This document shows positions 1-7,406 of a stretch of DNA of 8,236 bases, in pieces. The notes below the pieces were generated by a model. The model saw only the letters and a list, made by a program, of their open reading frames with translations, had not been told where the DNA came from and searched no databases. Both the position numbers and the translations under genes were made by a program. Each line of letters starts with the position of its first letter. Within the stretch, counting starts at the first letter, position 1. The stretch lies in the IMG/VR virus record IMGVR_UViG_2695420745_000009; one strand, given 5' to 3'. This DNA comes from a virus (Duplodnaviria; Heunggongvirae; Uroviricota; Caudoviricetes).

Positions 1-31
1 TGGTAGTGTCCGCTATTGCCAGTACACCTCA
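1..31. repeat. Left copy of a 31-nt terminal inverted repeat; exact reverse complement of 8205-8235
   Basis: Direct comparison: reverse complement of 8205-8235 equals 1-31; identity stops at position 32. With an A added before position 1, the + strand reads ATG GTA GTG ... = MVVSAIASTP, the same first 10 codons as the minus-strand ORF starting at 8236. That frame continues to a TGA at 114-116. Confidence 0.8.
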
Positions 32-434
32 GGGTATAAGGGGTTATGGCCACCGGACTACCAAACGGCTGCCAGCCCTCTTTCAGTTTATGTGTCAGCT
101 TTTCCGCAAGATCTGACGGCGGCGCCGCCNNNNNNNNNNNNNNNNNNNNNNNNNNNNNNNNNNNNNNNNNNNNNNNNNNNNNNNNNNNNNNNNNNNNNNN
201 NNNNNNNNNNNNNNNNNNNNNNNNNNNNNNNNNNNNNNNNNNNNNNNNNNNNNNNNNNNNNNNNNNNNNNNNNNNNNNNNNNNNCATGTAATACAGAAAA
301 AACACAAAACCATACCTTAAATAAAAACCTGATTATCAAGCAGATATGCATGGATAAACTACAAGACGAGATATAAACCACCCTGCATTTAAATAAACAA
401 TAAACAACATCAGAAAAATAATTCTGCTCTATGG

Positions 435-463
435 TTTACATTCAAAAATATCATTTATACTTT
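435..463 (+). promoter_or_regulatory. Candidate sigma70 promoter (TTTACA, 17-nt spacer, TACTTT) upstream of ORF 502-837
   Basis: -35 TTTACA at 435-440 and -10 TACTTT at 458-463 in an AT-rich intergenic stretch; followed by an AAGGAAA Shine-Dalgarno at 491-497 and ATG at 502. Motif match by eye only. Confidence 0.3.
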
Positions 464-501
464 TCAGAACATCACCAGCAAGGCATAAACAAGGAAACTA
501 A

Positions 502-837
502 ATGAAGTGGATTGTGATTGATACAGTTATCCAGCCATCATGCGGAATATCTTTTTCAGTCATATGGAGTAAAATAAAATTAATAATCTGGTATCAATCG
601 GATGCTTTCTTACCTCCTGAAAGTATATTTACACTGACTCACACAGGCATCATGCTCAATAACAAAGTGCTACCTGTAACCATTTACAACGTAGTACCAT
701 TCAATAAAACATTCTGGAATTCAATCAAAAATAGCCAGGAATGCCCTACAAATACAGATAACGTATTGAATGAATGCTTTAATAACCGTTGCACTCTGCA
801 AATATGTCCTTATGGACTAAAACAACAAAGTCCATAA
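502..837 (+). CDS. Hypothetical protein, 111 aa, AT-rich cargo-like gene, no family recognised
   Basis: Intact ORF in the six-frame track with an AAGGAAA ribosome-binding site 5-11 nt upstream and a plausible promoter. It runs opposite to the phage late genes. A GC-rich hairpin lies 35 nt downstream. No conserved motif recognised. Confidence 0.4.
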
Positions 838-871
838 GGAGTTTACTCACATCTGACAAAATCAATATAAA

Positions 872-936
872 CAGCCCCTCCGGAGAGGGGCTGGAGAGTG
901 GCGCTATGTGCCATTGCATGGTGCCGGGTGCCTCCC
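872..936. repeat. Copy 1 of a ~64-bp direct repeat carrying a 9-bp GC-rich hairpin (cagcccctc-cgga-gaggggctg); runs into an N-run
   Basis: 873-936 is near-identical to 1153-1215 (one 1-nt indel, one substitution). Hairpin at 872-893. On the minus strand the hairpin is followed by TTTATATTGATTTTG, so it looks like a minus-oriented intrinsic terminator. Confidence 0.75.
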
Positions 937-1152
937 NNNNNNNNNNNNNNNNNNNNNNNNNNNNNNNNNNNNNNNNNNNNNNNNNNNNNNNNNNNNNNNN
1001 NNNNNNNNNNNNNNNNNNNNNNNNNNNNNNNNNNNNNNNNNNNCGATACGCCCTGCCTGCTGACAGGCTTTCATCACATCTGAAAATATAGCACCCTGAC
1101 TGATACTGTAGTACCTAAGGTTCCAGAAACTGTGATGTATCCGGCACAGAAA

Positions 1153-1215
1153 AGCCCCTCCGGAGAGGGCTGGAGAGTGGCGCTATGTGCCATTGCATGA
1201 TGCCGGGTGCCTCCC
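1153..1215. repeat. Copy 2 of the ~64-bp hairpin-bearing direct repeat
   Basis: Same sequence as 873-936 with a shortened stem (gcccctc-cgga-gagggc); on the minus strand it is followed by TTTTCTGTG. Confidence 0.75.
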
Positions 1216-1563
1216 GGTGAATTCAGTACCAGCACCTGAATCCGCGATTATCCCATATACCTACTCGCTGATTGCCCCTCCGCACAGGGGGATTCACCAT
1301 GCCAGTTTCTTTTAACAAACTCCCCGCAAACCAGACAACAGTCAACCGCCTGAATTGTGAAGTATTTAAAAATTTCTCCCGCTAACTGATACCCGGCTAA
1401 CAGTCTGGCGTTTTCTTTTTCAGCAACGGGAAAGCAACAACCACCACACCCGCCACCAGCACACCGTCAGCCAGCACTGACATTATCCGGCTGCTGCAAT
1501 GCCATTCACAAAAACAGTAAGCAATCACTTTTTACCGTAACAGGTGATAATCCAGATATGTAT

Positions 1564-1890
1564 CTACCCCAGATGAGTAATCCGAAGTTCATCCATACCA
1601 CAGGTCCTGGCTATTCTGTTGTACTCCTGAACAAGAGCAAATAATTCTGAATTAGCAACCATGAACTCATCGCAAACCCTCTGTATAGCATCACTATTCA
1701 GAATAATAACGTCTCTTCCCGAAAGACGATCAGGAGTACAGAACAAAACTGTCAAACGGCTGAAGGCCTTTGCTCGTGCTGCATTGACTATATCAATACG
1801 CTGCCTAAGGATGAAACACCCCGACGCCTCATCAATATTCACTCTACCCACACCATATGAATGATAAATATTTAATGCTGAAAAAACCAT
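1564..1890 (-). CDS. Hypothetical ORF (108 aa from ATG at 1890; 117 aa from TTG at 1917) in the slot Stx phages use for stxAB; weak coding evidence
   Basis: Longest ORF between the tRNA cluster and the AT-rich region. No convincing Shine-Dalgarno before either start, and a 67-aa ORF overlaps it on the other strand. No similarity to Stx A or B subunits recognised by eye. Confidence 0.25.
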   Translation of the reverse strand: MVFSALNIYHSYGVGRVNIDEASGCFILRQRIDIVNAARAKAFSRLTVLFCTPDRLSGRDVIILNSDAIQRVCDEFMVANSELFALVQEYNRIARTCGMDELRITHLG

Positions 1891-2037
1891 TAGACCGTAT
1901 AACAAACACTCAATCAATACTTAACAGAACTTTTATTTTTGACAAACATAAAATATTTTCAACAATATCCTGAGCCAGGTATATTTCAGTATAAGGCTCT
2001 GCCGGAAGGAATCTGGAAGAATGAATATGGCGCGCTG

Positions 2038-2114
2038 TACTGGATTCGAACCAGTGACCGATTGCTTAGAAGGCAATTGCTCTGTCCGGCTGAGCTAACA
2101 ACGCATGATGCAGA
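2038..2114 (-). tRNA. argO: tRNA-Arg (anticodon UCU), positional equivalent of argO in Stx phages
   Basis: Minus-strand sequence GCGTTGT-TA-GCTC-AGCCGGACA-GAGC-A-ATTGC-CTTCTAA-GCAAT-CGGTC-ACTGG-TTCGAAT-CCAGT-ACAGCGC-G-CCA folds as a cloverleaf: 7-bp acceptor stem (one G-U pair), TTCGAAT T-loop, anticodon loop CU-UCU-AA, encoded CCA. Confidence 0.9.
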
Positions 2115-2185
2115 TAATGGACCGCCATCGGGGACTTGAACNNNNNNNNNNNNNNNNNNNNNACCGTCTGAATTGTGAGACATTT

Positions 2186-2211
2186 AAAAAAAAGGCCCGC
2201 AAAAGCGAGCC
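2186..2211 (-). terminator. Intrinsic-terminator-like hairpin between the two Arg tRNA genes
   Basis: Minus strand reads GGCTCGC-TTTT-GCGGGCC (7-bp stem with one G-U) followed by TTTTTTTTAAATG. It lies 15 nt downstream of the 3' end of the 2226-2302 tRNA. Confidence 0.5.
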
Positions 2212-2225
2212 AGGGAAAATAAGTG

Positions 2226-2302
2226 TGGCGCGTTGTACTGGATTCGAACCAGTGACCGATTGCTTAGAAGGCAATTGCTCTGTCCGGCTGAGCTAACAAC
2301 GC
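2226..2302 (-). tRNA. argN: tRNA-Arg (anticodon UCU), positional equivalent of argN
   Basis: Near-identical to the 2038-2114 tRNA (one acceptor-stem difference giving a fully Watson-Crick 7-bp stem GCGTTGT/ACAACGC), discriminator G, encoded CCA, anticodon loop CTTCTAA. Confidence 0.9.
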
Positions 2303-2402
2303 TGAATACCGATAATGGACCGCCATCGGGGACCCGCCCCCGCACCAACAACCCTGTTATCGTGTCGTCTGCTCTTCCTGATAAGCTAATGGCGGTTTGT
2401 GA

Positions 2403-2478
2403 TGGTGGCCCTTGCTGGATTTGAACCAGCGACCTGGCGATTATGAGTCGCTCGCTCTCACCACTGAGCTAAAGGGCC
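2403..2478 (-). tRNA. ileZ: tRNA with CAU anticodon, ileX-like (tRNA-Ile2 read as LAU after lysidinylation), positional equivalent of ileZ
   Basis: Minus strand GGCCCTTTAGCTCAGTGGTGAGAGCGAGCGACTCATAATCGCCAGGTCGCTGGTTCAAATCCAGCAAGGGCCACCA: 7-bp acceptor stem GGCCCTT/AAGGGCC, anticodon loop CTCATAA, encoded CCA. It closely resembles E. coli ileX as remembered. Anticodon alone cannot separate Ile2 from Met. Confidence 0.85.
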
Positions 2479-2487
2479 GGGAGCCGC

Positions 2488-2516
2488 ATAATAACGACGC
2501 GTAATTAATTCTTCAA
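2488..2516 (-). promoter_or_regulatory. Candidate sigma70 promoter for the tRNA cluster (TTGAAG, 17-nt spacer, TATTAT)
   Basis: Minus strand reads TTGAAG (plus 2511-2516), a 17-nt spacer, then TATTAT (plus 2488-2493); the tRNA 5' end at 2478 is about 9 nt downstream of the -10. It sits directly after the methyltransferase stop codon (2519-2521). Confidence 0.5.
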
Positions 2517-2518
2517 TA

Positions 2519-3577
2519 TCATCCGTTCTGGCTGACTAAATCCTGTACTTCCCGAACCGTCTGCTCAAAACGTTCAGTCTCCAGCTCAACGCCAATTGCA
2601 CGACGCCCGAGCGCCAGTGCCGCTTTCACTGTCGAACCCAACCCCATGAAAAAATCTGCAATCAGGTCACCCGGACGACTGCTAGCGCTGATTATCTGCT
2701 GCAGCATTTCTGCCGGTTTTTCGCACGGATGTTTCCCGGGATAGAACTGCACCGGTTTATGCGTCCACACATCGGTATACGGCACCTGCACCGTCACGCC
2801 AAAATACCGCCGCAGATGTTTATATTCACTCAGCAGCTCCGCATACTGCCGGTTCAGTGAGGTATACGTATCCACCAGCTGGTGGTGGAGCTTTTCCAGT
2901 TCACCACGCCGATGCTTCTCTTCTGCCACCCGGGCAAACAGCGCCTGTAATTTCAGATAATCGCTTTCATTCGGCAACTGCCACTGACCGGCACTGAACC
3001 AGTGCGACACCATGTTTTTCTTTCCTGTGGCATCTGCAATCTGTTTTGCCGTTATCCCCAGGGCAGCTCGCGCATCACGAAAGTAAGAAATCAGCGGGGC
3101 CATCACATGCTGTTTCAGTGCACTGCCCTTCGCCGCATACCCGGCATCTTTCGGACGATACGGCCCCTGATAATGTTCCGCGAACAGAATGCGCTCTGTG
3201 GCGGGGAAATACGCCCGCAGGCTTTCCTTGTTGCATCCGTTCCAGCGTCCGGACGGCTTCGCCCAGATAATATGGTTCAGCACACTGAAGCGTTCACGCA
3301 TCATGATTTCGATATCAGATGCCAGGCGATGACCACAGAACAGGTAAAGACTTCCGGCAGGTTTCAGCACCCGCCAGAACTGCGCCAGACACTGGTCCAG
3401 CCACTTCAGGTAATCATCGTCGCCCTTCCACTGGTTATCCCAGCCCTCAGGCTTCACTTTAAAGTACGGCGGGTCCGTGACTATCAGGTCAACAGAATTT
3501 TCGGGTAACGACCGGATAAATTCCAGGCAGTCGGCGTTGATTAACTCACAACTGGATATTTTTACAGTATTAAGCAT
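2519..3577 (-). CDS. DNA methyltransferase, beta-class (N6-adenine or N4-cytosine), 352 aa, no adjacent restriction endonuclease
   Basis: Motif IV DPPY near the N-terminus (VTDPPYF) and motif I FxGxG near the C-terminus (DFFMGLGST). That order defines the beta permutation of amino-MTases. Position between the Q-like gene and the tRNAs matches phage-borne methylases of Stx-type prophages. Confidence 0.85.
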   Translation of the reverse strand: MLNTVKISSCELINADCLEFIRSLPENSVDLIVTDPPYFKVKPEGWDNQWKGDDDYLKWLDQCLAQFWRVLKPAGSLYLFCGHRLASDIEIMMRERFSVLNHIIWAKPSGRWNGCNKESLRAYFPATERILFAEHYQGPYRPKDAGYAAKGSALKQHVMAPLISYFRDARAALGITAKQIADATGKKNMVSHWFSAGQWQLPNESDYLKLQALFARVAEEKHRRGELEKLHHQLVDTYTSLNRQYAELLSEYKHLRRYFGVTVQVPYTDVWTHKPVQFYPGKHPCEKPAEMLQQIISASSRPGDLIADFFMGLGSTVKAALALGRRAIGVELETERFEQTVREVQDLVSQNG

Positions 3578-3669
3578 GGATCATTAAGCCTGTCTCTGAT
3601 AGGCTCATTCTGCTTTTGCGCAAAGCAGTGGGCCTGAGGTTTGCTTGTGAACCCAACGCATGAGCAGAT

Positions 3670-3700
3670 GGCTGGTGGGTGTTAGGGGCACCCACCAGCC
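3670..3700. promoter_or_regulatory. Perfect 12-bp inverted repeat with 7-nt spacer (ggctggtgggtg-ttagggg-cacccaccagcc), about 95 nt upstream of the methyltransferase start
   Basis: Arms 3670-3681 and 3689-3700 are exact reverse complements. No U-tract follows on either strand, so it is not a canonical terminator. Candidate operator, RNA processing site or structural element. Confidence 0.45.
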
Positions 3701-3713
3701 GCCCATTTACCAC

Positions 3714-3741
3714 AAATAAAAAAGCCTTCACTGCGGAAGGC
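3714..3741 (-). terminator. Rho-independent terminator (candidate tR'-like) between the Q-like gene and the methyltransferase
   Basis: Minus strand reads GCCTTC-CGCAGT-GAAGGC followed by TTTTTTATTTGTG. It lies roughly 200 nt downstream of the N-masked stretch where a Q-dependent late promoter would be expected. Confidence 0.6.
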
Positions 3742-4099
3742 GTCTGTAANNNNNNNNNNNNNNNNNNNNNNNNNNNNNNNNNNNNNNNNNNNNNNNNNCC
3801 CCCCCCCGCCATAACCAGCTGGGTCAGTATTAACTGGCAGCGTTCGCGTGAAAGGTAAGTATTCTGCGCTATCTCCCCGACTGTCGCCGGTTCGGTAACG
3901 CTTNNNNNNNNNNNNNNNNNNNNNNNNNNNNNNNNNNNNNNNNNNNNNNNNNNNNNNNNNNNNNNNNNNNNNNNNNNNNNNNNNNNNNNNNNNNNNNNNN
4001 NNNNNNNGACACACCAATAACTCTTGTCGAAAAAGCCAGCAAGCTGAAAGACAGGTATTCACCGCCACCAGCGCGTTTACTGTACTGACGCGATTTCAG

Positions 4100-5026
4100 T
4101 CATAAAAAACCCGCTCGGCGGCGGGTTGTAGAAACTCTTCTAACGTCAGGCATAAAACGCCCATNNNNNNNNNNNNNNNNNNNNNNNNNNNNNNNNNNNN
4201 NNNNNNACCTAGTTACCTTTTTTAACTGCCGCTCAGCCCATGCTTCTTCAATATCAAACCGAGTCACCAGCGCATCATAGAATTTCTTAACTGTTTTTTC
4301 CCATGACGCGCGTGTTATCTGGTTTGTCACCTCGCATATAGCATTAAATGCCTCCGTTGATGGTAGTCTTTCATAGCCACGACCACCACAACGCTGGCAG
4401 TCTCTGATAACAGGCATACCACGTTTTACCGACTCTTCACGATGAATGGCGACACCACGCCCACGGCAATCCTTACAGGCGGTGGAAACCTCACCCTTTC
4501 CGCCACACTCCGGACAGGCAACTTTTACCACCTCCCTGACTTTTTTCCATTCTTCCCAGTAAGACGGATACACACCTTTCGTACACTTTGCCCATACCGG
4601 CGGCTTACCATCCGGATACTGGATCTTGTTTGTAAAAACCTCGCTTTCAATAAATTTTTTTCCGTGACAGCAGGGGCACTGTTTTTTGCTCGCCGCGCTA
4701 CGGGCATAATCTTCAAACGCATACGAAGCCATAATACGCATCACTGCCGGTTTTATTTCTGCCGGGAGTTTTCTTAACGCCGCCACGCGATCACACCGAC
4801 TGAGTGCATATTCTGTCAGCAATTCTGTTGCCCGCTCTCTGTCATTCATACTAATGCCCATTTTCCCAAGGAACGCAGAAACCCCCATCTCAGCCCGATT
4901 CTGTGTCATGCCCTGCGCGGCCATCACATCAGTGATACTCAGCGCATCTTTCGACGTTGAGGCCGATGCATCAGTCAGGCCGGGGGATTTTGGGGAGTAG
5001 TATTTCGGTAAATCTTCCAGTTTCAT
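4100..5026 (-). CDS. Putative late-gene antiterminator (Q-like, QuuQ-type) with four CxxCxGxG DnaJ-type zinc-finger repeats; C-terminus uncertain
   Basis: Sits where Q sits: directly after rusA, before the terminator, methylase and tRNAs. Contains CPCCHGKK, CPECGGKG, CKDCRGRG and CQRCGGRG. Its ATG overlaps the rusA stop (ATGA). The 3' part reads through 42 masked nt, so length and stop are not verified. Confidence 0.55.
   Translation of the reverse strand: MKLEDLPKYYSPKSPGLTDASASTSKDALSITDVMAAQGMTQNRAEMGVSAFLGKMGISMNDRERATELLTEYALSRCDRVAALRKLPAEIKPAVMRIMASYAFEDYARSAASKKQCPCCHGKKFIESEVFTNKIQYPDGKPPVWAKCTKGVYPSYWEEWKKVREVVKVACPECGGKGEVSTACKDCRGRGVAIHREESVKRGMPVIRDCQRCGGRGYERLPSTEAFNAICEVTNQITRASWEKTVKKFYDALVTRFDIEEAWAERQLKKVTRXXXXXXXXXXXXXXXGRFMPDVRRVSTTRRRAGFL
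4103..4125 (-). terminator. Terminator-like hairpin plus T-tract at the 3' end of the Q-like ORF
   Basis: Minus strand reads CCCGC-CGCCGA-GCGGG followed by TTTTTTATGA; the TGA inside the T-tract is the stop of the ORF as drawn. The true stop of the gene is uncertain because of the N-run at 4165-4206. Confidence 0.45.
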
Positions 5027-5403
5027 TTTTTGACCTGCCCTTCAAGCATTATGGGATAAATCTTCACCCCCAGACGTCCACCAGATACTGGCTGACCACG
5101 AACGATATTGATTTCATCAAACTGCTCATCGTCCATTAGCAACCCCGCATGCGTCAGCGCATCCAGCGGCGCTTTCAGAATATTGTCCAGGTCACGGCGG
5201 CGCTTATCCGGTGGTTCTGCAATAATTTTTATTGCCAACCTTCCGGACAGGCTTAATTTCAGCCGCTGCTGGCGAACAATAAGCGCCACTGCCCGGCGAT
5301 AACGCTCCCCGGCTTTTGATACAAAATATGTGCTGCCACGACGACGCCAGTAAGTGTTCACCGTCGGCGGGTAAGGTAAAACAAATTCTATGCGCTCGGT
5401 CAT
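5023..5403 (-). CDS. rusA: RusA-family Holliday junction resolvase, 126 aa
   Basis: Recalled similarity to E. coli RusA including the acidic catalytic region (PPDKRRRDLDNILKAPLDALTHAGLLMDDEQ versus RusA [31 protein letters not shown]); lambdoid nin-region context; start overlaps the stop of the upstream DUF968 gene (TAATG). Confidence 0.85.
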   Translation of the reverse strand: MTERIEFVLPYPPTVNTYWRRRGSTYFVSKAGERYRRAVALIVRQQRLKLSLSGRLAIKIIAEPPDKRRRDLDNILKAPLDALTHAGLLMDDEQFDEINIVRGQPVSGGRLGVKIYPIMLEGQVKK

Positions 5404-6462
5404 TTATGCTTTCCACTTCAGAACACCCGAATTTCTCGCGTGCATTAAAAAACGAATCAGCAACAACAGCTGACTGCCGTGTTTCTCTTCAAAATCTTTT
5501 ACTCCGGCATGTAGTTCGTTACGGCATTTACGGCATAACGGAATAACAAACAAATCATCAGCCTTTGTTCCCATCCCTCCCAGTCCATGACCAATGATGT
5601 GATGCGGATCATCTGCCTGATTGCCACACGTCATGCATTTCTGCGTTTTTACCCAGCGCGTGTATACAGGCATCTCTTCCCGTTGTGATTTCTGGCGCTG
5701 GAGATACTGAGCCGGTGACTCCGGATCAACGGCAATGCTGACCACCGTCTTTTCCTGTGGTGGGTTCTGTTGCTGGTGGACGTGAGGCAGTAACGCAATA
5801 TTTTTTGTGCGCTGCTTCAGTATGCTGGTGGCTGTCTGCTCTCCCGGTATGATGTCGCTTTCACTGTACACAGAGCGAATTTTTTCCGCACGCAACCCCA
5901 GCGAACGACGTAATACCGCTTCCGGTAGCGCGTCCGCCACCTGATTGCGGACCGCCCACCAGGATAATTCAGCCAGAGATAATTCACGCTCCTGCGTACC
6001 GCTTATTGCGTGACCGATGACGTCAATCATCCATGCTGACAGGTTTTGATGAGCAAGTTGCTCGAGTGATTCGGATGTCTGGTCACGCAGCTGGTTGTCG
6101 CAGTGCCAGCACAACACCATTGCGCCGGTACCATAACGGTGAATGACGGTTTCGCTGTGATGATAATCGCCGTGTGGCCACTGGCAGGATTTAATATGGC
6201 GCACCAGCCAGTCAGACAATGCACCAGCACCACCAGCAGCACGAATCACCCGTGCGTTACTGAAAAACGGCAGCAATGTTTTGTCTTCCACCAGCGGCTG
6301 GCGAGCGGCAGGAACGACCCCGGACGGCAGATTACGCATGCTTTTTGGTTCCGGCTCCACCAGTATTCTGCCGTTATGGAATGCTGACATTGATTCACGG
6401 CCTGGCTTAACGATAACCAGACCGAGTTCCGGTACCAGAACAGGTCGAAGTAATACCCGCAC
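5404..6462 (-). CDS. DUF968 / YdfU-like prophage protein with C-terminal HNH-like zinc-finger motif, 352 aa, GTG start
   Basis: C-terminal CMTCGNQADDPHHIIGHGLGG...CRKCRNELH (CxxC...HH...CxxC...H). GTG start at 6462 is preceded by GGAGGT 5 nt upstream. Same position as ydfU in the K-12 Qin prophage (quuQ-ydfU-rem-hokD). Family assignment is from memory and synteny. Confidence 0.7.
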   Translation of the reverse strand: MRVLLRPVLVPELGLVIVKPGRESMSAFHNGRILVEPEPKSMRNLPSGVVPAARQPLVEDKTLLPFFSNARVIRAAGGAGALSDWLVRHIKSCQWPHGDYHHSETVIHRYGTGAMVLCWHCDNQLRDQTSESLEQLAHQNLSAWMIDVIGHAISGTQERELSLAELSWWAVRNQVADALPEAVLRRSLGLRAEKIRSVYSESDIIPGEQTATSILKQRTKNIALLPHVHQQQNPPQEKTVVSIAVDPESPAQYLQRQKSQREEMPVYTRWVKTQKCMTCGNQADDPHHIIGHGLGGMGTKADDLFVIPLCRKCRNELHAGVKDFEEKHGSQLLLLIRFLMHARNSGVLKWKA

Positions 6463-7039: not shown

Positions 7040-7195
7040 TTACTCCTCAGGTTCGTAAGCTGTGAAGACAGCGACCTCCGTCTGGCCGGTTCGAATTCGT
7101 ACCTCGCAGAGGTCTTTCCTCGTTACCAGTGCCGTCACTATGACGGTTAAACAGATGACGATCAGGGCGATTAACATCGCCTTTTGCTGCTTCAT
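7040..7195 (-). CDS. hokD: Hok/Gef-family type I membrane toxin, 51 aa, matching HokD (RelF) as remembered
   Basis: Translation MKQQKAMLIALIVICLTVIVTALVTRKDLCEVRIRTGQTEVAVFTAYEPEE has the Hok-family transmembrane helix and C-terminal motif. AAGGAG Shine-Dalgarno 8-13 nt before the ATG at 7195. An in-frame upstream ATG at 7252 is probably not the real start. Confidence 0.9.
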   Translation of the reverse strand: MKQQKAMLIALIVICLTVIVTALVTRKDLCEVRIRTGQTEVAVFTAYEPEE

Positions 7196-7406
7196 AGCCT
7201 GCTTCTCCTTGCCTTTCGGCACGTAAGAGGCTAACCTAGATTTGCCGTTCATAGATTGAGCCTCAGATTAATGTTAAGCGTCTTGCCGGACGCGTAATGT
7301 TAACTGGGGCTTTTCTCTATCTGCCTTTTGGTGTTCATGCCTGAGACAGATAGCCTCAAGCACCCGCTGCAATTCTACTTAACTCTCCTTTTCCCGCAAA
7401 CCGTTT

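Follow-up and report, generated by a model that had tools for sequence, protein, structure and literature searches.

Described relatives of the locus

The best described relative of the locus analysed here is the iraL locus of the phi-potB prophage in the uropathogenic E. coli strain CFT073 (Hryckowian et al. 2014). IraL from CFT073 was demonstrated experimentally to be an RssB anti-adaptor that binds RssB's N-terminal domain and stabilises RpoS in log phase, and the start of its transcript was mapped by 5'-RACE (PMC4045071). K-12 IraM (b1160), whose crystal structure with RssB is available (8TWD, PMC10844676), is an RssB anti-adaptor of the same family, but its allele, its promoter, and its place in the genome are not those of iraL. 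IraM answers to Mg2+ starvation and touches both domains of RssB, whereas IraL acts in log phase and through the N-terminal domain only (PMC4045071). In Stx2a and Stx2c phages, stx2AB is followed by a gene for the STnc100 small RNA (= EcOnc27), a convergent IraM-family gene, a DUF1737 or NanS-p gene, and a holin gene. Homologues of STnc100 have been described as EcOnc27/sRNA103 and as the PasD prophage sRNAs, with RT-PCR detection in vesicles, and an 11-nt match of STnc100 to stxB has been proposed (PMC12370729). Finally, lambdoid prophages carry a pair of TerB-like and DUF3927 genes, in which DUF3927 comes last, ahead of the sRNA or the holin. Some phage records, such as PPyecE_EH1910 and JLK-2012, give the pair the labels TciA/TciB, which trace to phage P1.

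We compared these systems with the window, meaning the whole 8,236-nucleotide stretch of virus record IMGVR_UViG_2695420745_000009 (Table 1). The DNA comes from a lambdoid prophage of E. coli and represents its late-regulatory region, with Q, terminators, a DNA methylase gene, and tRNAs on the minus strand. Gene order was the same as in CFT073: Q, tRNAs, ~500 bp that are unannotated there, DUF3927, STnc100-like, iraL (convergent), DUF1737, and holin. The two loci differed between Q and the tRNAs, where the window has the methylase and CFT073 an IS200, in the number of STnc100 copies (two in the window vs one), and in the tRNAs, which are ileZ-argN-argO in CFT073 and include a degenerate argN and a duplicated argO in the window. 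The methylase and tRNAs were ~90% identical to those in the late regions of Stx2a_1447 (AP012536) and phage 2851, and the order beyond the cargo was that of the Stx2a/Stx2c phages. However, the Q family differed, the IraM-family gene of those phages was a different allele (72% protein and 74% DNA identity), and the window had phrog_2873 and DUF3927 genes where they carry stx2AB.

Most of the locus is already known: the characterisation of iraL dates from 2014, the sRNA family has an Rfam entry, and the arrangement turns up in hundreds of E. coli genomes. At least 80% of the region was present in 863 of the 5426 complete genomes of E. coli, and phages of the vB_EcoS-640R1 type obtained by induction had it as well. 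The region aligned as ordinary sequence of related phages, which largely goes against the earlier note's proposal of novel cargo genes or toxin-locus relics at 292-2037. We conclude with high confidence that 292-2037 is a stretch of ordinary accessory DNA (a 'moron') in a lambdoid prophage of E. coli. It separates the Q/tRNA block from the lysis cassette and consists of the slot genes, the sRNA genes, and iraL. Part identities, synteny, the breakpoints relative to stx, and the conserved promoter and transcription start were observed directly in this analysis.

Table 1 Features of the window, ordered by position
Feature	Coordinates	Strand	Evidence
DUF1737-domain gene, part	1..129	-	frame 2 reads AAPPSDLAEKLTHKLKEGWQPFGSPVAITPYTL; first gene of the DUF1737/holin/lysis block
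iraL promoter and 5' UTR (putative -35 and -10)	435..501	+	-35-like TTTACA 435-440; -10 TATACT 456-461; start A469; Shine-Dalgarno AAGGAAAC 491-498
iraL, IraM-family RssB anti-adaptor, 111 aa	502..837	+	NCBIfam NF007393, 162 bits (cut-off 121)
STnc100-like sRNA, copy B	863..1103	-	RF02076, 25.9 bits (gathering 47); core masked by N run 937-1043
STnc100 sRNA, copy A	1142..1331	-	Rfam RF02076, 122.5 bits (gathering 47), E 3e-27, full-length model match
Segment in place of stx2AB (true stx slot)	1361..2014	-	blastn vs Stx2a_1447 (record L004)
DUF3927 small membrane protein, 43 aa	1397..1528	-	PF13064, 95.6 bits (cut-off 25)
Phage protein, phrog_2873, 92 aa from GTG 1842	1564..1842	-	phrog_2873, E 5.6e-58, 194.8 bits
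tRNA-Arg(TCT), argO-like, copy 2	2028..2104	-	ARAGORN; Rfam tRNA 68 bits; one mismatch to Stx2a argO
tRNA-Arg(TCT), argO-like, copy 1	2226..2302	-	ARAGORN; identical to Stx2a_1447 argO
argN-like tRNA remnant, degenerate	2303..2402	-	alignment to argN of CFT073 and Stx2a_1447
tRNA with CAT anticodon, ileZ-like	2403..2478	-	ARAGORN, Rfam; homologue named tRNA-Ile by PGAP
N6/N4 DNA methyltransferase	2519..3577	-	PF01555, 144 bits; PADLOC MTase_II, E 4.6e-163
Sequence directly downstream of Q, common to Stx phages	4008..4127	-	83-94% identical to the sequence that follows Q in Stx2a_1447 and PPyecE_EH1910
Q antiterminator	4165..5026	-	PF03589, 178 bits; one end at 5026

Late-regulatory block and tRNAs

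The minus-strand order of a Q-like gene, terminator, methylase, and tRNAs given in the earlier note was confirmed by the PF03589 and PF01555 matches, terminator-like hairpins, and tRNA calls. The listed ORF for Q (4100-5026) passes through an N run at 4165-4206. The homologous Q of strain 131 is 822 nt, and a Q of equal length here would stop near 4205, inside that run. Immediately downstream of Q, a terminator-like hairpin with a T-run was found at 4108-4127, and 4008-4127 may represent the pR'/tR' region; a second terminator-like hairpin lay at 3724-3741. The methylase gene shared ~90% nucleotide identity with that of Stx2a_1447. Parts of the region are hidden by N-masked runs at 130-284, 937-1043, 2142-2162, 3750-3798, 3904-4007, and 4165-4206.

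The ileZ-argN-argO-like tRNAs described earlier were only partly recovered: ileZ-like and arginine tRNAs were present, but the middle argN was degenerate and both called arginine tRNAs were argO-like. The acceptor, D, and T arms of the remnant aligned to argN and its anticodon arm was replaced; neither ARAGORN nor Rfam called a tRNA at 2303-2402. A terminator-like hairpin (2194-2211) was located just downstream of argO-like copy 1. The block had the elements of the Stx type (Q, terminator, and ileZ/arg tRNAs), while stxA and stxB, which mark a Stx-converting phage downstream of the tRNAs, were not found there by tblastn.

The stx2AB site and its two small genes

We mapped the toxin site by blastn against Stx2a_1447, which carries stx2B and stx2A between L004 positions 3587 and 4953. 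Window 1274-1360 corresponded to 3501-3587 on the stx2B-distal side and window 2015-2141 to 4953-5078 on the argO side, with breakpoints at window 1360/1361 and 2014/2015. Because homology flanks stx2AB on both sides, window 1361-2014 replaces the 1365-bp stx2AB segment, in agreement with the idea of a late module of Stx-phage type that lacks the toxin. The slot contained the DUF3927 mini-protein gene and the phrog_2873 ORF. In this phage lineage it is bounded by argO and the STnc100 sRNA, and the gene for the IraM-family anti-adaptor lies beside it, outside these limits. The AT-rich DNA of unknown function that had been assigned to the slot did not belong there: its 111-aa ORF is iraL, which lies outside 1361-2014.

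The homology to the late regions of Stx2 phages, which extends to either side of stx2AB, and a 92-aa ORF without a Pfam, NCBIfam, PADLOC, or PDB match, are both consistent with the first reading of this DNA, in which the sequence downstream of the tRNAs holds either genes for novel cargo or what is left of a Shiga-toxin locus that was lost and decayed. Similarity to Stx was absent at the protein level, however. Stx2A and Stx2B gave only chance-level tblastn matches to the window (E of 0.3 or higher), none of them inside 292-2037. This rules out a toxin-locus relic, since no stx remnant was found in the slot, and upholds the earlier statement that ORF 1564-1890 has no similarity to Stx. The 111-aa ORF proved to be iraL, which has been characterised and has a paralogue that occurs together with stx2. 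Both the 92-aa ORF and DUF3927 belong, as intact genes, to phage families that already exist and that occupy the same slot in distant prophages; they constitute alternative cargo and not debris. Taken together, we consider the novel-cargo or decayed-toxin reading very improbable and treat the slot as part of an ordinary accessory segment.

The 92-aa ORF matched phrog_2873 over its full length (residues 1-92 to profile positions 17-108 of 108), and 8/8 aligned relatives matched the same family. Longer forms can be read, of 117 aa from TTG 1917 or 108 aa from ATG 1890. We rejected both starts in favour of GTG 1842 since the closer homologues in the representative search mostly start at query residue 26 and a coding-type substitution pattern was missing from the first 25 codons, and the 108- and 117-aa forms are probably not translated. 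The weak translation signals noticed earlier for ORF 1564-1890 were evident here as well: GTG 1842 had no convincing Shine-Dalgarno sequence, and none of the candidate starts of the ORF (1564-1917/1890) was preceded by a good one. Homologues comprised 20 representative proteins at E up to 0.001, with full-length relatives of 91-95 aa down to ~32% identity.

PGAP left the 92-aa ORF unannotated in 042, CFT073, and 131, the three RefSeq genomes inspected. This annotation implies that ORF 1564-1917 is spurious and that the 500 bp between argO and DUF3927 are non-coding, for instance tRNA-trailer or regulatory sequence, which would also suit the weak translation signals and the lack of third-position bias over the 25 codons at the N-terminal end of the longer form. 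Several observations nonetheless argue for a gene. In addition to the phrog_2873 match, homologues of 91-95 aa keep the frame at 32-40% identity, a distant homologue has a good Shine-Dalgarno sequence (GAAGGGATAATATG), and changes at third codon positions were in excess in the C-terminal part only, where they were twice those at first and second positions over 57 codons. An AF2 model from an 8-sequence alignment reached a pLDDT of 90.6. A non-coding segment is therefore unlikely, and what we see is an annotation gap in which a conserved 92-aa phage gene was missed in 3/3 genomes. HMM searches left neither ORF of the earlier note looking like a chance reading (NCBIfam IraM, 162 bits; phrog_2873, E 5.6e-58). 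The proposal of ORF 1564-1890 as novel cargo was right in that it is real, conserved cargo, but the family already exists and the likely start is GTG 1842.

The model confidently predicted a helix-hairpin-helix coiled coil for the 92-aa protein. Sequence searches against Pfam (E up to 1), NCBIfam, PADLOC, and PDB returned nothing meaningful, a fold search against PDB gave no match at E 0.001 or better, and BFVD yielded uncharacterised phage proteins only (E 0.15 or higher). The top PDB hits, prefoldin beta subunits (E ~0.03, TM 0.7, rmsd >8 Å), were discarded as a resemblance of the generic coiled-coil kind and not functional evidence.

The DUF3927 gene directly follows, starting 35 bp downstream of the phrog_2873 ORF. 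Its product was annotated by PGAP as DUF3927 family in 042, CFT073, and 131 and is labelled 'TciB-like' in some phage records. In distant prophages, a 38%-identical homologue of the 92-aa protein sits in the same slot after Q and is succeeded by TerB-like, DUF3927, and holin genes; the window has no TerB-like gene. The phrog_2873/DUF3927 pair might conceivably form a functional module for lysogenic conversion or phage competition, an alternative occupant of the exact Stx2 toxin site expressed by Q read-through, though we regard this as rather unlikely and saw no pointer to a host-directed role.

STnc100 genes, iraL, and the lysis-cassette edge

STnc100 copy A lies at the same site downstream of late-operon cargo as STnc100/EcOnc27/sRNA103/PasD and has the same intrinsic terminator (1153-1171). 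Folded as a single sequence, it was no more stable than shuffles (z = -0.44). Its assignment comes from the covariance model and not from the single-sequence fold. Copy B scored under the gathering threshold owing to 107 masked nt. Its intrinsic terminator at 872-893, a hairpin (CAGCCCCTCTCCGGAGGGGCTG) with a T-rich tail, faces iraL. The 3' 74 nt of copy B were near-identical to copy A, while 1044-1149 was unlike copy A and had a 77% match to the second copy of phage vB_EcoS-640R1, which carries two full STnc100 copies at the same place. We rejected a simple tandem duplication, as only the 3' ~74 nt are near-identical. Four related phages carried a member of the family at the same position, and in Stx2a_1447 it is directly downstream of stx2B (153.8 bits). 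The 5' region of the window's STnc100 differed from that of the Stx2-phage copy, and seed pairing as in the 11-nt stxB proposal (PMC12370729) therefore need not apply. The 43-aa DUF3927 gene (1397-1528) and the two STnc100 genes were absent from the earlier note.

The 111-aa ORF (35% GC) aligned to NF007393 almost end to end (residues 1-110 to profile positions 1-113 of 114). Identity was 99% to CFT073 IraL (WP_000871291.1, 110/111 residues), 72% to the Stx2a-phage paralogue, and 61% to K-12 IraM. It is an iraL allele by the measure of at least 95% identity to CFT073 iraL over the whole coding region (PMC4045071). The single residue difference is S74 here vs L74 in the studied IraL, and the regulatory regions differ by two SNPs, one in the promoter at -2 and one in the 5' UTR. 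Of the 32-nt CFT073 5'-RACE sequence (ACATCACCAGCAAGGCATAAACAAGGAAACCA), the first 30 nt were exact at window 469-498 and were followed by one SNP, which carries the RACE-mapped start over to window 469. The -10 and -35 elements are our own reading of the sequence. With AAGGAAAC 3 nt before the ATG and the RACE-defined start conserved, the earlier description of an ORF with its own promoter-like and ribosome-binding signals was well founded; its standing as novel cargo was not, as the gene is the characterised RssB anti-adaptor iraL (PMC4045071) and lies outside the stx slot.

The database name of the protein, 'anti-adapter protein IraM', its 61% identity to IraM, and a match to the IraM structure (PDB 8TWD; phmmer E 6.3e-31, query 1-78 to chain residues 4-81, the RssB-binding core) would suggest that it behaves as K-12 IraM does, with PhoPQ induction at Mg2+ starvation and binding to both RssB domains. 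The N-terminal 78-residue core and the C-terminal cysteines are conserved between the two proteins. Against this, the identity to IraL is 99% and to IraM only 61%, both the promoter of iraL and its 5' end as mapped by RACE are conserved, and the context is of the CFT073 iraL type and not that of the K-12 e14-adjacent iraM. IraM-like behaviour is thus highly unlikely, and we treat the protein as IraL, assuming its activity to be identical to that of the CFT073 protein.

In 41 records of Stx2 phages (Stx2a/2c/2k), an IraM-family paralogue with 71-73% identity runs convergently to stx2B; Stx2a_1447 has an intact 107-aa version (L004 3012-3335). Since this paralogue adjoins stx2B, the IraM-family gene coexists with the toxin and does not replace stx. 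Stx2a/2c/2k phages have an IraM-family allele of their own adjacent to stx2B, which most GenBank phage records leave without annotation. This ties toxin phages to the control of RpoS stability. Our literature search found no dedicated study of the anti-adaptor in Stx2 phages.

Taken as an ordinary accessory segment, the locus would work as follows. The two small late-strand genes directly after the tRNAs, encoding the 92-aa phrog_2873 protein and the 43-aa DUF3927 membrane peptide, would be read by Q-modified RNA polymerase as part of the late operon, followed by the two STnc100-family genes, each predicted to end at its intrinsic terminator. Convergent from the opposite strand, iraL would be expressed from its own putative sigma-70 promoter. 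IraL would bind the RssB N-terminal domain and block RpoS delivery to ClpXP, and the lysogen would thereby keep RpoS elevated in exponential growth. Earlier work demonstrated RssB binding and RpoS stabilisation for a protein with one residue changed, and both would apply here by analogy. Late transcription and iraL may also be subject to convergent interference.

At the edge of the window, the partial DUF1737 gene has its start codon within the N run at 130-284. The DUF1737 CDS region in E. coli 042 was 100% identical to it, and the NanS-p N-terminus of Stx2a_1447 was 87% identical.

Layout of the late module and the stx slot

Megablast placed at least 80% of segment 292-2037 in 863 of the 5426 complete E. 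coli genomes, most of them matching at 95-99% or above, and the whole window minus N runs was found in 51 genomes at ~95.6% identity. Segment 292-2037 is thus ordinary and widespread prophage DNA, its main gene has been characterised before, and the locus is already known. The observation reported in the earlier note and its toxin-less module were upheld, but its content of unknown function, its placement of the 111-aa ORF in the slot and its toxin relic were not.

The window (8236 bp) spans, on the minus strand, late-regulatory DNA of a lambdoid prophage. The gene order proposed earlier was borne out by the ORF list, a tRNA scan and family scans. Terminator-like sites numbered 10 in 4.2 kb vs 2.8 ± 1.8 in shuffles. 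The hok/sok system was upstream of the DUF968-RusA-Q block, the same placement as in related prophages. N runs produced artificial long ORFs with X stretches in the ORF list, and masked both the start of DUF1737 and the core of STnc100 copy B. The Q stop codon is probably inside the run at 4165-4206, where we placed it because of a length comparison with the 822-nt Q of E. coli strain 131 (NZ_CP093011).

Features of the window, with coordinates, strand and supporting evidence
Feature	Coordinates	Strand	Evidence or remark
hok/sok type I toxin-antitoxin	7040-7365	-	Hok PF01848 81.6 bits; sok RF01794 112.4 bits
DUF968 protein	5404-6462	-	family scan
RusA	5023-5403	-	family scan
Q antiterminator, PF03589 type	ending at 5026	-	family scan
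DNA methyltransferase	2519-3577	-	family scan
tRNA, CAT anticodon	2403-2478	-	tRNA scan
two tRNA-Arg(TCT)	2226-2302 and 2028-2104	-	tRNA scan
ORF92, phrog_2873	1564-1842	-	longer readings 1564-1890/1917
DUF3927 protein, 43 aa	1397-1528	-	95.6 bits; PGAP-annotated in every related genome inspected
STnc100 copy A	1142-1331	-	Rfam RF02076, 122.5 bits vs gathering score 47
STnc100 copy B	863-1103	-	sub-threshold RF02076 match; centre N-masked
iraL, 111 aa	502-837	+	
terminator-like hairpins + T-runs	4108-4127, 3724-3741, 2194-2211, 1153-1171, 872-893	-	
N runs (n = 6)	130-284, 937-1043, 2142-2162, 3750-3798, 3904-4007, 4165-4206		

Alignment to the Stx2a phage Stx2a_1447 (AP012536) mapped the breakpoints. 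Homology by blastn spanned 2015-2141 and 2185-3896 (argO, the other tRNAs and the methylase) and resumed at 1274-1360, the phage sequence just past stx2B. Window 1361-2014 therefore takes the place of the 1365 bp bearing stx2A and stx2B in that phage. With Stx2A and Stx2B as tblastn queries, the window gave only chance-level matches, all outside 292-2037. Homology flanking the stx2AB position together with the lack of a Stx match confirmed a toxin-less Stx-type late module, and the locus has no relic of a lost toxin. The 111-aa ORF, previously counted as slot content, neighbours the slot.

A short plus-strand motif, CTGAATTGTGA(N3)ATTTAAAAA, occurred at 1351-1372 and again at 2166-2190, one copy just 3' of the DUF3927 stop and the other just 3' of the hairpin at 2194-2211. 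A related CTGAATTGTGAC was beside stx2B in Stx2a_1447 (~3578). The motif is possibly a module junction or an STnc100 promoter element.

iraL and the IraM-family alleles of Stx2 phages

The 111-aa ORF is iraL. It scored 162 bits against the NCBIfam anti-adapter protein IraM model (curated cut-off 121) and matched the crystallised IraM core at E 6e-31 (PDB 8TWD, PMC10844676). Window 285-936 was 99.7% identical to E. coli 042 (NC_017626), and the 042 and CFT073 (NC_004431) proteins share one RefSeq accession, WP_000871291.1. In direct alignments, 110/111 residues of the window IraL were identical to the CFT073 protein, with 61% identity to K-12 IraM and 72% to the Stx2a-phage paralogue. The CFT073 gene lies on the potB island; Hryckowian et al. 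(mBio 2014, PMC4045071) gave it the name iraL and characterised it, so the earlier assignment of unknown function does not stand. The annotation presents this island as a complete lambdoid prophage with the same order as the window: Q, tRNAs, ~500 unannotated bp, DUF3927, opposite-strand iraL, DUF1737 and holin. The published 5'-RACE sequence of CFT073 iraL is ACATCACCAGCAAGGCATAAACAAGGAAACCA (PMC4045071), the first 30 nt of which matched window 469-498 exactly; TATACT was at 456-461 and AAGGAAAC immediately 5' of the iraL ATG. The promoter-like and ribosome-binding signals described for this ORF are therefore real, and coincide with the experimentally mapped start.

Stx2 phages had a third IraM/IraL-family allele, with the STnc100 sRNA between the allele and stx2B. 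Stx2a_1447 was 74% identical to window 388-827 (blastn) and contained an intact, unannotated 107-aa IraM-family ORF at 3012-3335 (+), convergent to stx2B and 65% identical to K-12 IraM. Tblastn of the window IraL against 50,697 phage records recovered a 71-73% allele in 41, almost all Stx2a, Stx2c or Stx2k phages. A few of these are annotated as iraM, and most GenBank phage records leave the allele without annotation. Near-identical (97%) iraL was found in four induced E. coli phages (e.g., vB_EcoS-640R1), between Q/tRNA and DUF1737/holin. A 2014 survey recognised iraL and iraM by ≥95%-identity matches (PMC4045071), which the Stx2-phage allele would miss at such divergence, and a limited literature search found no dedicated study of it. 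In the stx-negative PPyecE_EH1910, the anti-sRNA AgvB (2778-2839, +; RF02702, 96.5 bits) had the position and orientation of the window's iraL, convergent to STnc100 and just before NanS-p/DUF1737; the slot cargo there was a RelE-like/HTH pair with TerB-like and DUF3927 genes.

Small genes and sRNAs in and beside the slot

Two small minus-strand genes occupy the slot, DUF3927 and ORF92, the 92-aa reading from GTG 1842. ORF92 had no match in Pfam, NCBIfam, PADLOC or PDB sequence searches, and PGAP leaves it unannotated in 3/3 RefSeq genomes inspected (042, CFT073 and 131), so that a ~500 bp blank appears between tRNA-Arg and DUF3927. A chance ORF was nevertheless rejected, given its conserved homologues and its match to phrog_2873 (E 5.6e-58), a phage family of unknown function. 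The idea of novel cargo failed for iraL; the minus-strand ORF is a conserved member of this existing family. A word-indexed search returned near-identical copies and one 56% homologue; an exhaustive HMMER search over 1.84 billion representative sequences gave 20 matches with E of 0.001 or lower, among them full-length 91-95 aa proteins with 32-44% identity. A 38%-identical homologue sat at the equivalent place of another prophage, with Q before it and TerB-like, DUF3927 and holin genes behind it.

GTG 1842 is the likely start because alignments to most of the closer homologues open at query residue 26. In a comparison with the 56% homologue, third-position changes numbered 31 in the C-terminal 57 codons (first 15, second 14) and 12 in the opening 27 codons of the long reading (first 11, second 10); the latter is not a coding-type pattern. 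No candidate start had a good Shine-Dalgarno, in keeping with the weak translation signals noted earlier; a distant homologue did have one. AlphaFold2 on an 8-sequence alignment gave a confident model (pLDDT 90.6) with predicted helices at 3-35 and 50-81 separated by a short beta hairpin. Fold searches with this model yielded nothing at E ≤0.001. The top matches, prefoldin beta subunits (E ~0.03), had an rmsd >8 Å and were set aside as generic coiled-coil resemblance.

In a Logan contig (SRR29325574), a 241-aa AraC-family (HTH_18) regulator gene (164-889) precedes the 56% ORF92 homologue (911-1261). This gene is reminiscent of the AraC-like regulators that EHEC prophages encode. The arrangement suggests that regulators, in addition to toxins, are exchanged at the slot.

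Both STnc100 copies, between the slot and iraL, ended in terminator hairpins of the minus-strand set, and their final 74 nt were nearly identical. STnc100 was in the same position in Stx2a_1447 (directly 3' of stx2B), PPyecE_EH1910 and mEp460_ev081, with two copies in vB_EcoS-640R1. Folded on its own, copy A gained no stability over shuffled versions (z = -0.44), so support for the call comes from the covariance model together with synteny. Published work describes STnc100 as a prophage-associated sRNA and a relative of PasD (Zhu, Shabalina and Storz, bioRxiv 2026). It overlaps with EcOnc27/sRNA103, which is Hfq-bound and lies downstream of stx2 (PMC12711010), and has been detected in STEC vesicles (PMC12370729).

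Proposed working and the tRNA block

Observed directly are the parts, the order in which they stand and their homology to elements already characterised or catalogued; how they work together is proposed from the established late-operon model of lambda and Stx phages. On induction, polymerase modified by Q would start downstream of Q and pass the terminators, and read-through would cover the methylase, tRNAs, ORF92, DUF3927 and sRNA genes before running on into DUF1737, holin and lysozyme. During lysogeny, iraL would be transcribed from its own sigma-70 promoter toward the late operon, and IraL would sequester RssB so that RpoS escapes ClpXP, an action shown for CFT073 IraL and assumed for the window's one-residue variant. 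Late transcription would be antisense through iraL, so induction may, speculatively, dampen iraL.

AGA, AGG and ATA, rare codons read by the adjacent tRNAs, were enriched in ORF92 (8/92 codons) relative to the methylase (1.1% of codons); AGA or AGG made up 5 of the 10 Arg codons in ORF92, and ATA 6 of the 13 Ile codons in iraL. This enrichment, in small numbers, is consistent with a tRNA-cargo association. The argO gene occurred twice, ~198 bp apart, with the hairpin at 2194-2211 between the copies. The argN position (2303-2402, -) held a degenerate tRNA called by neither ARAGORN nor Rfam, in which the acceptor, D and T arms were kept and the anticodon arm was replaced.
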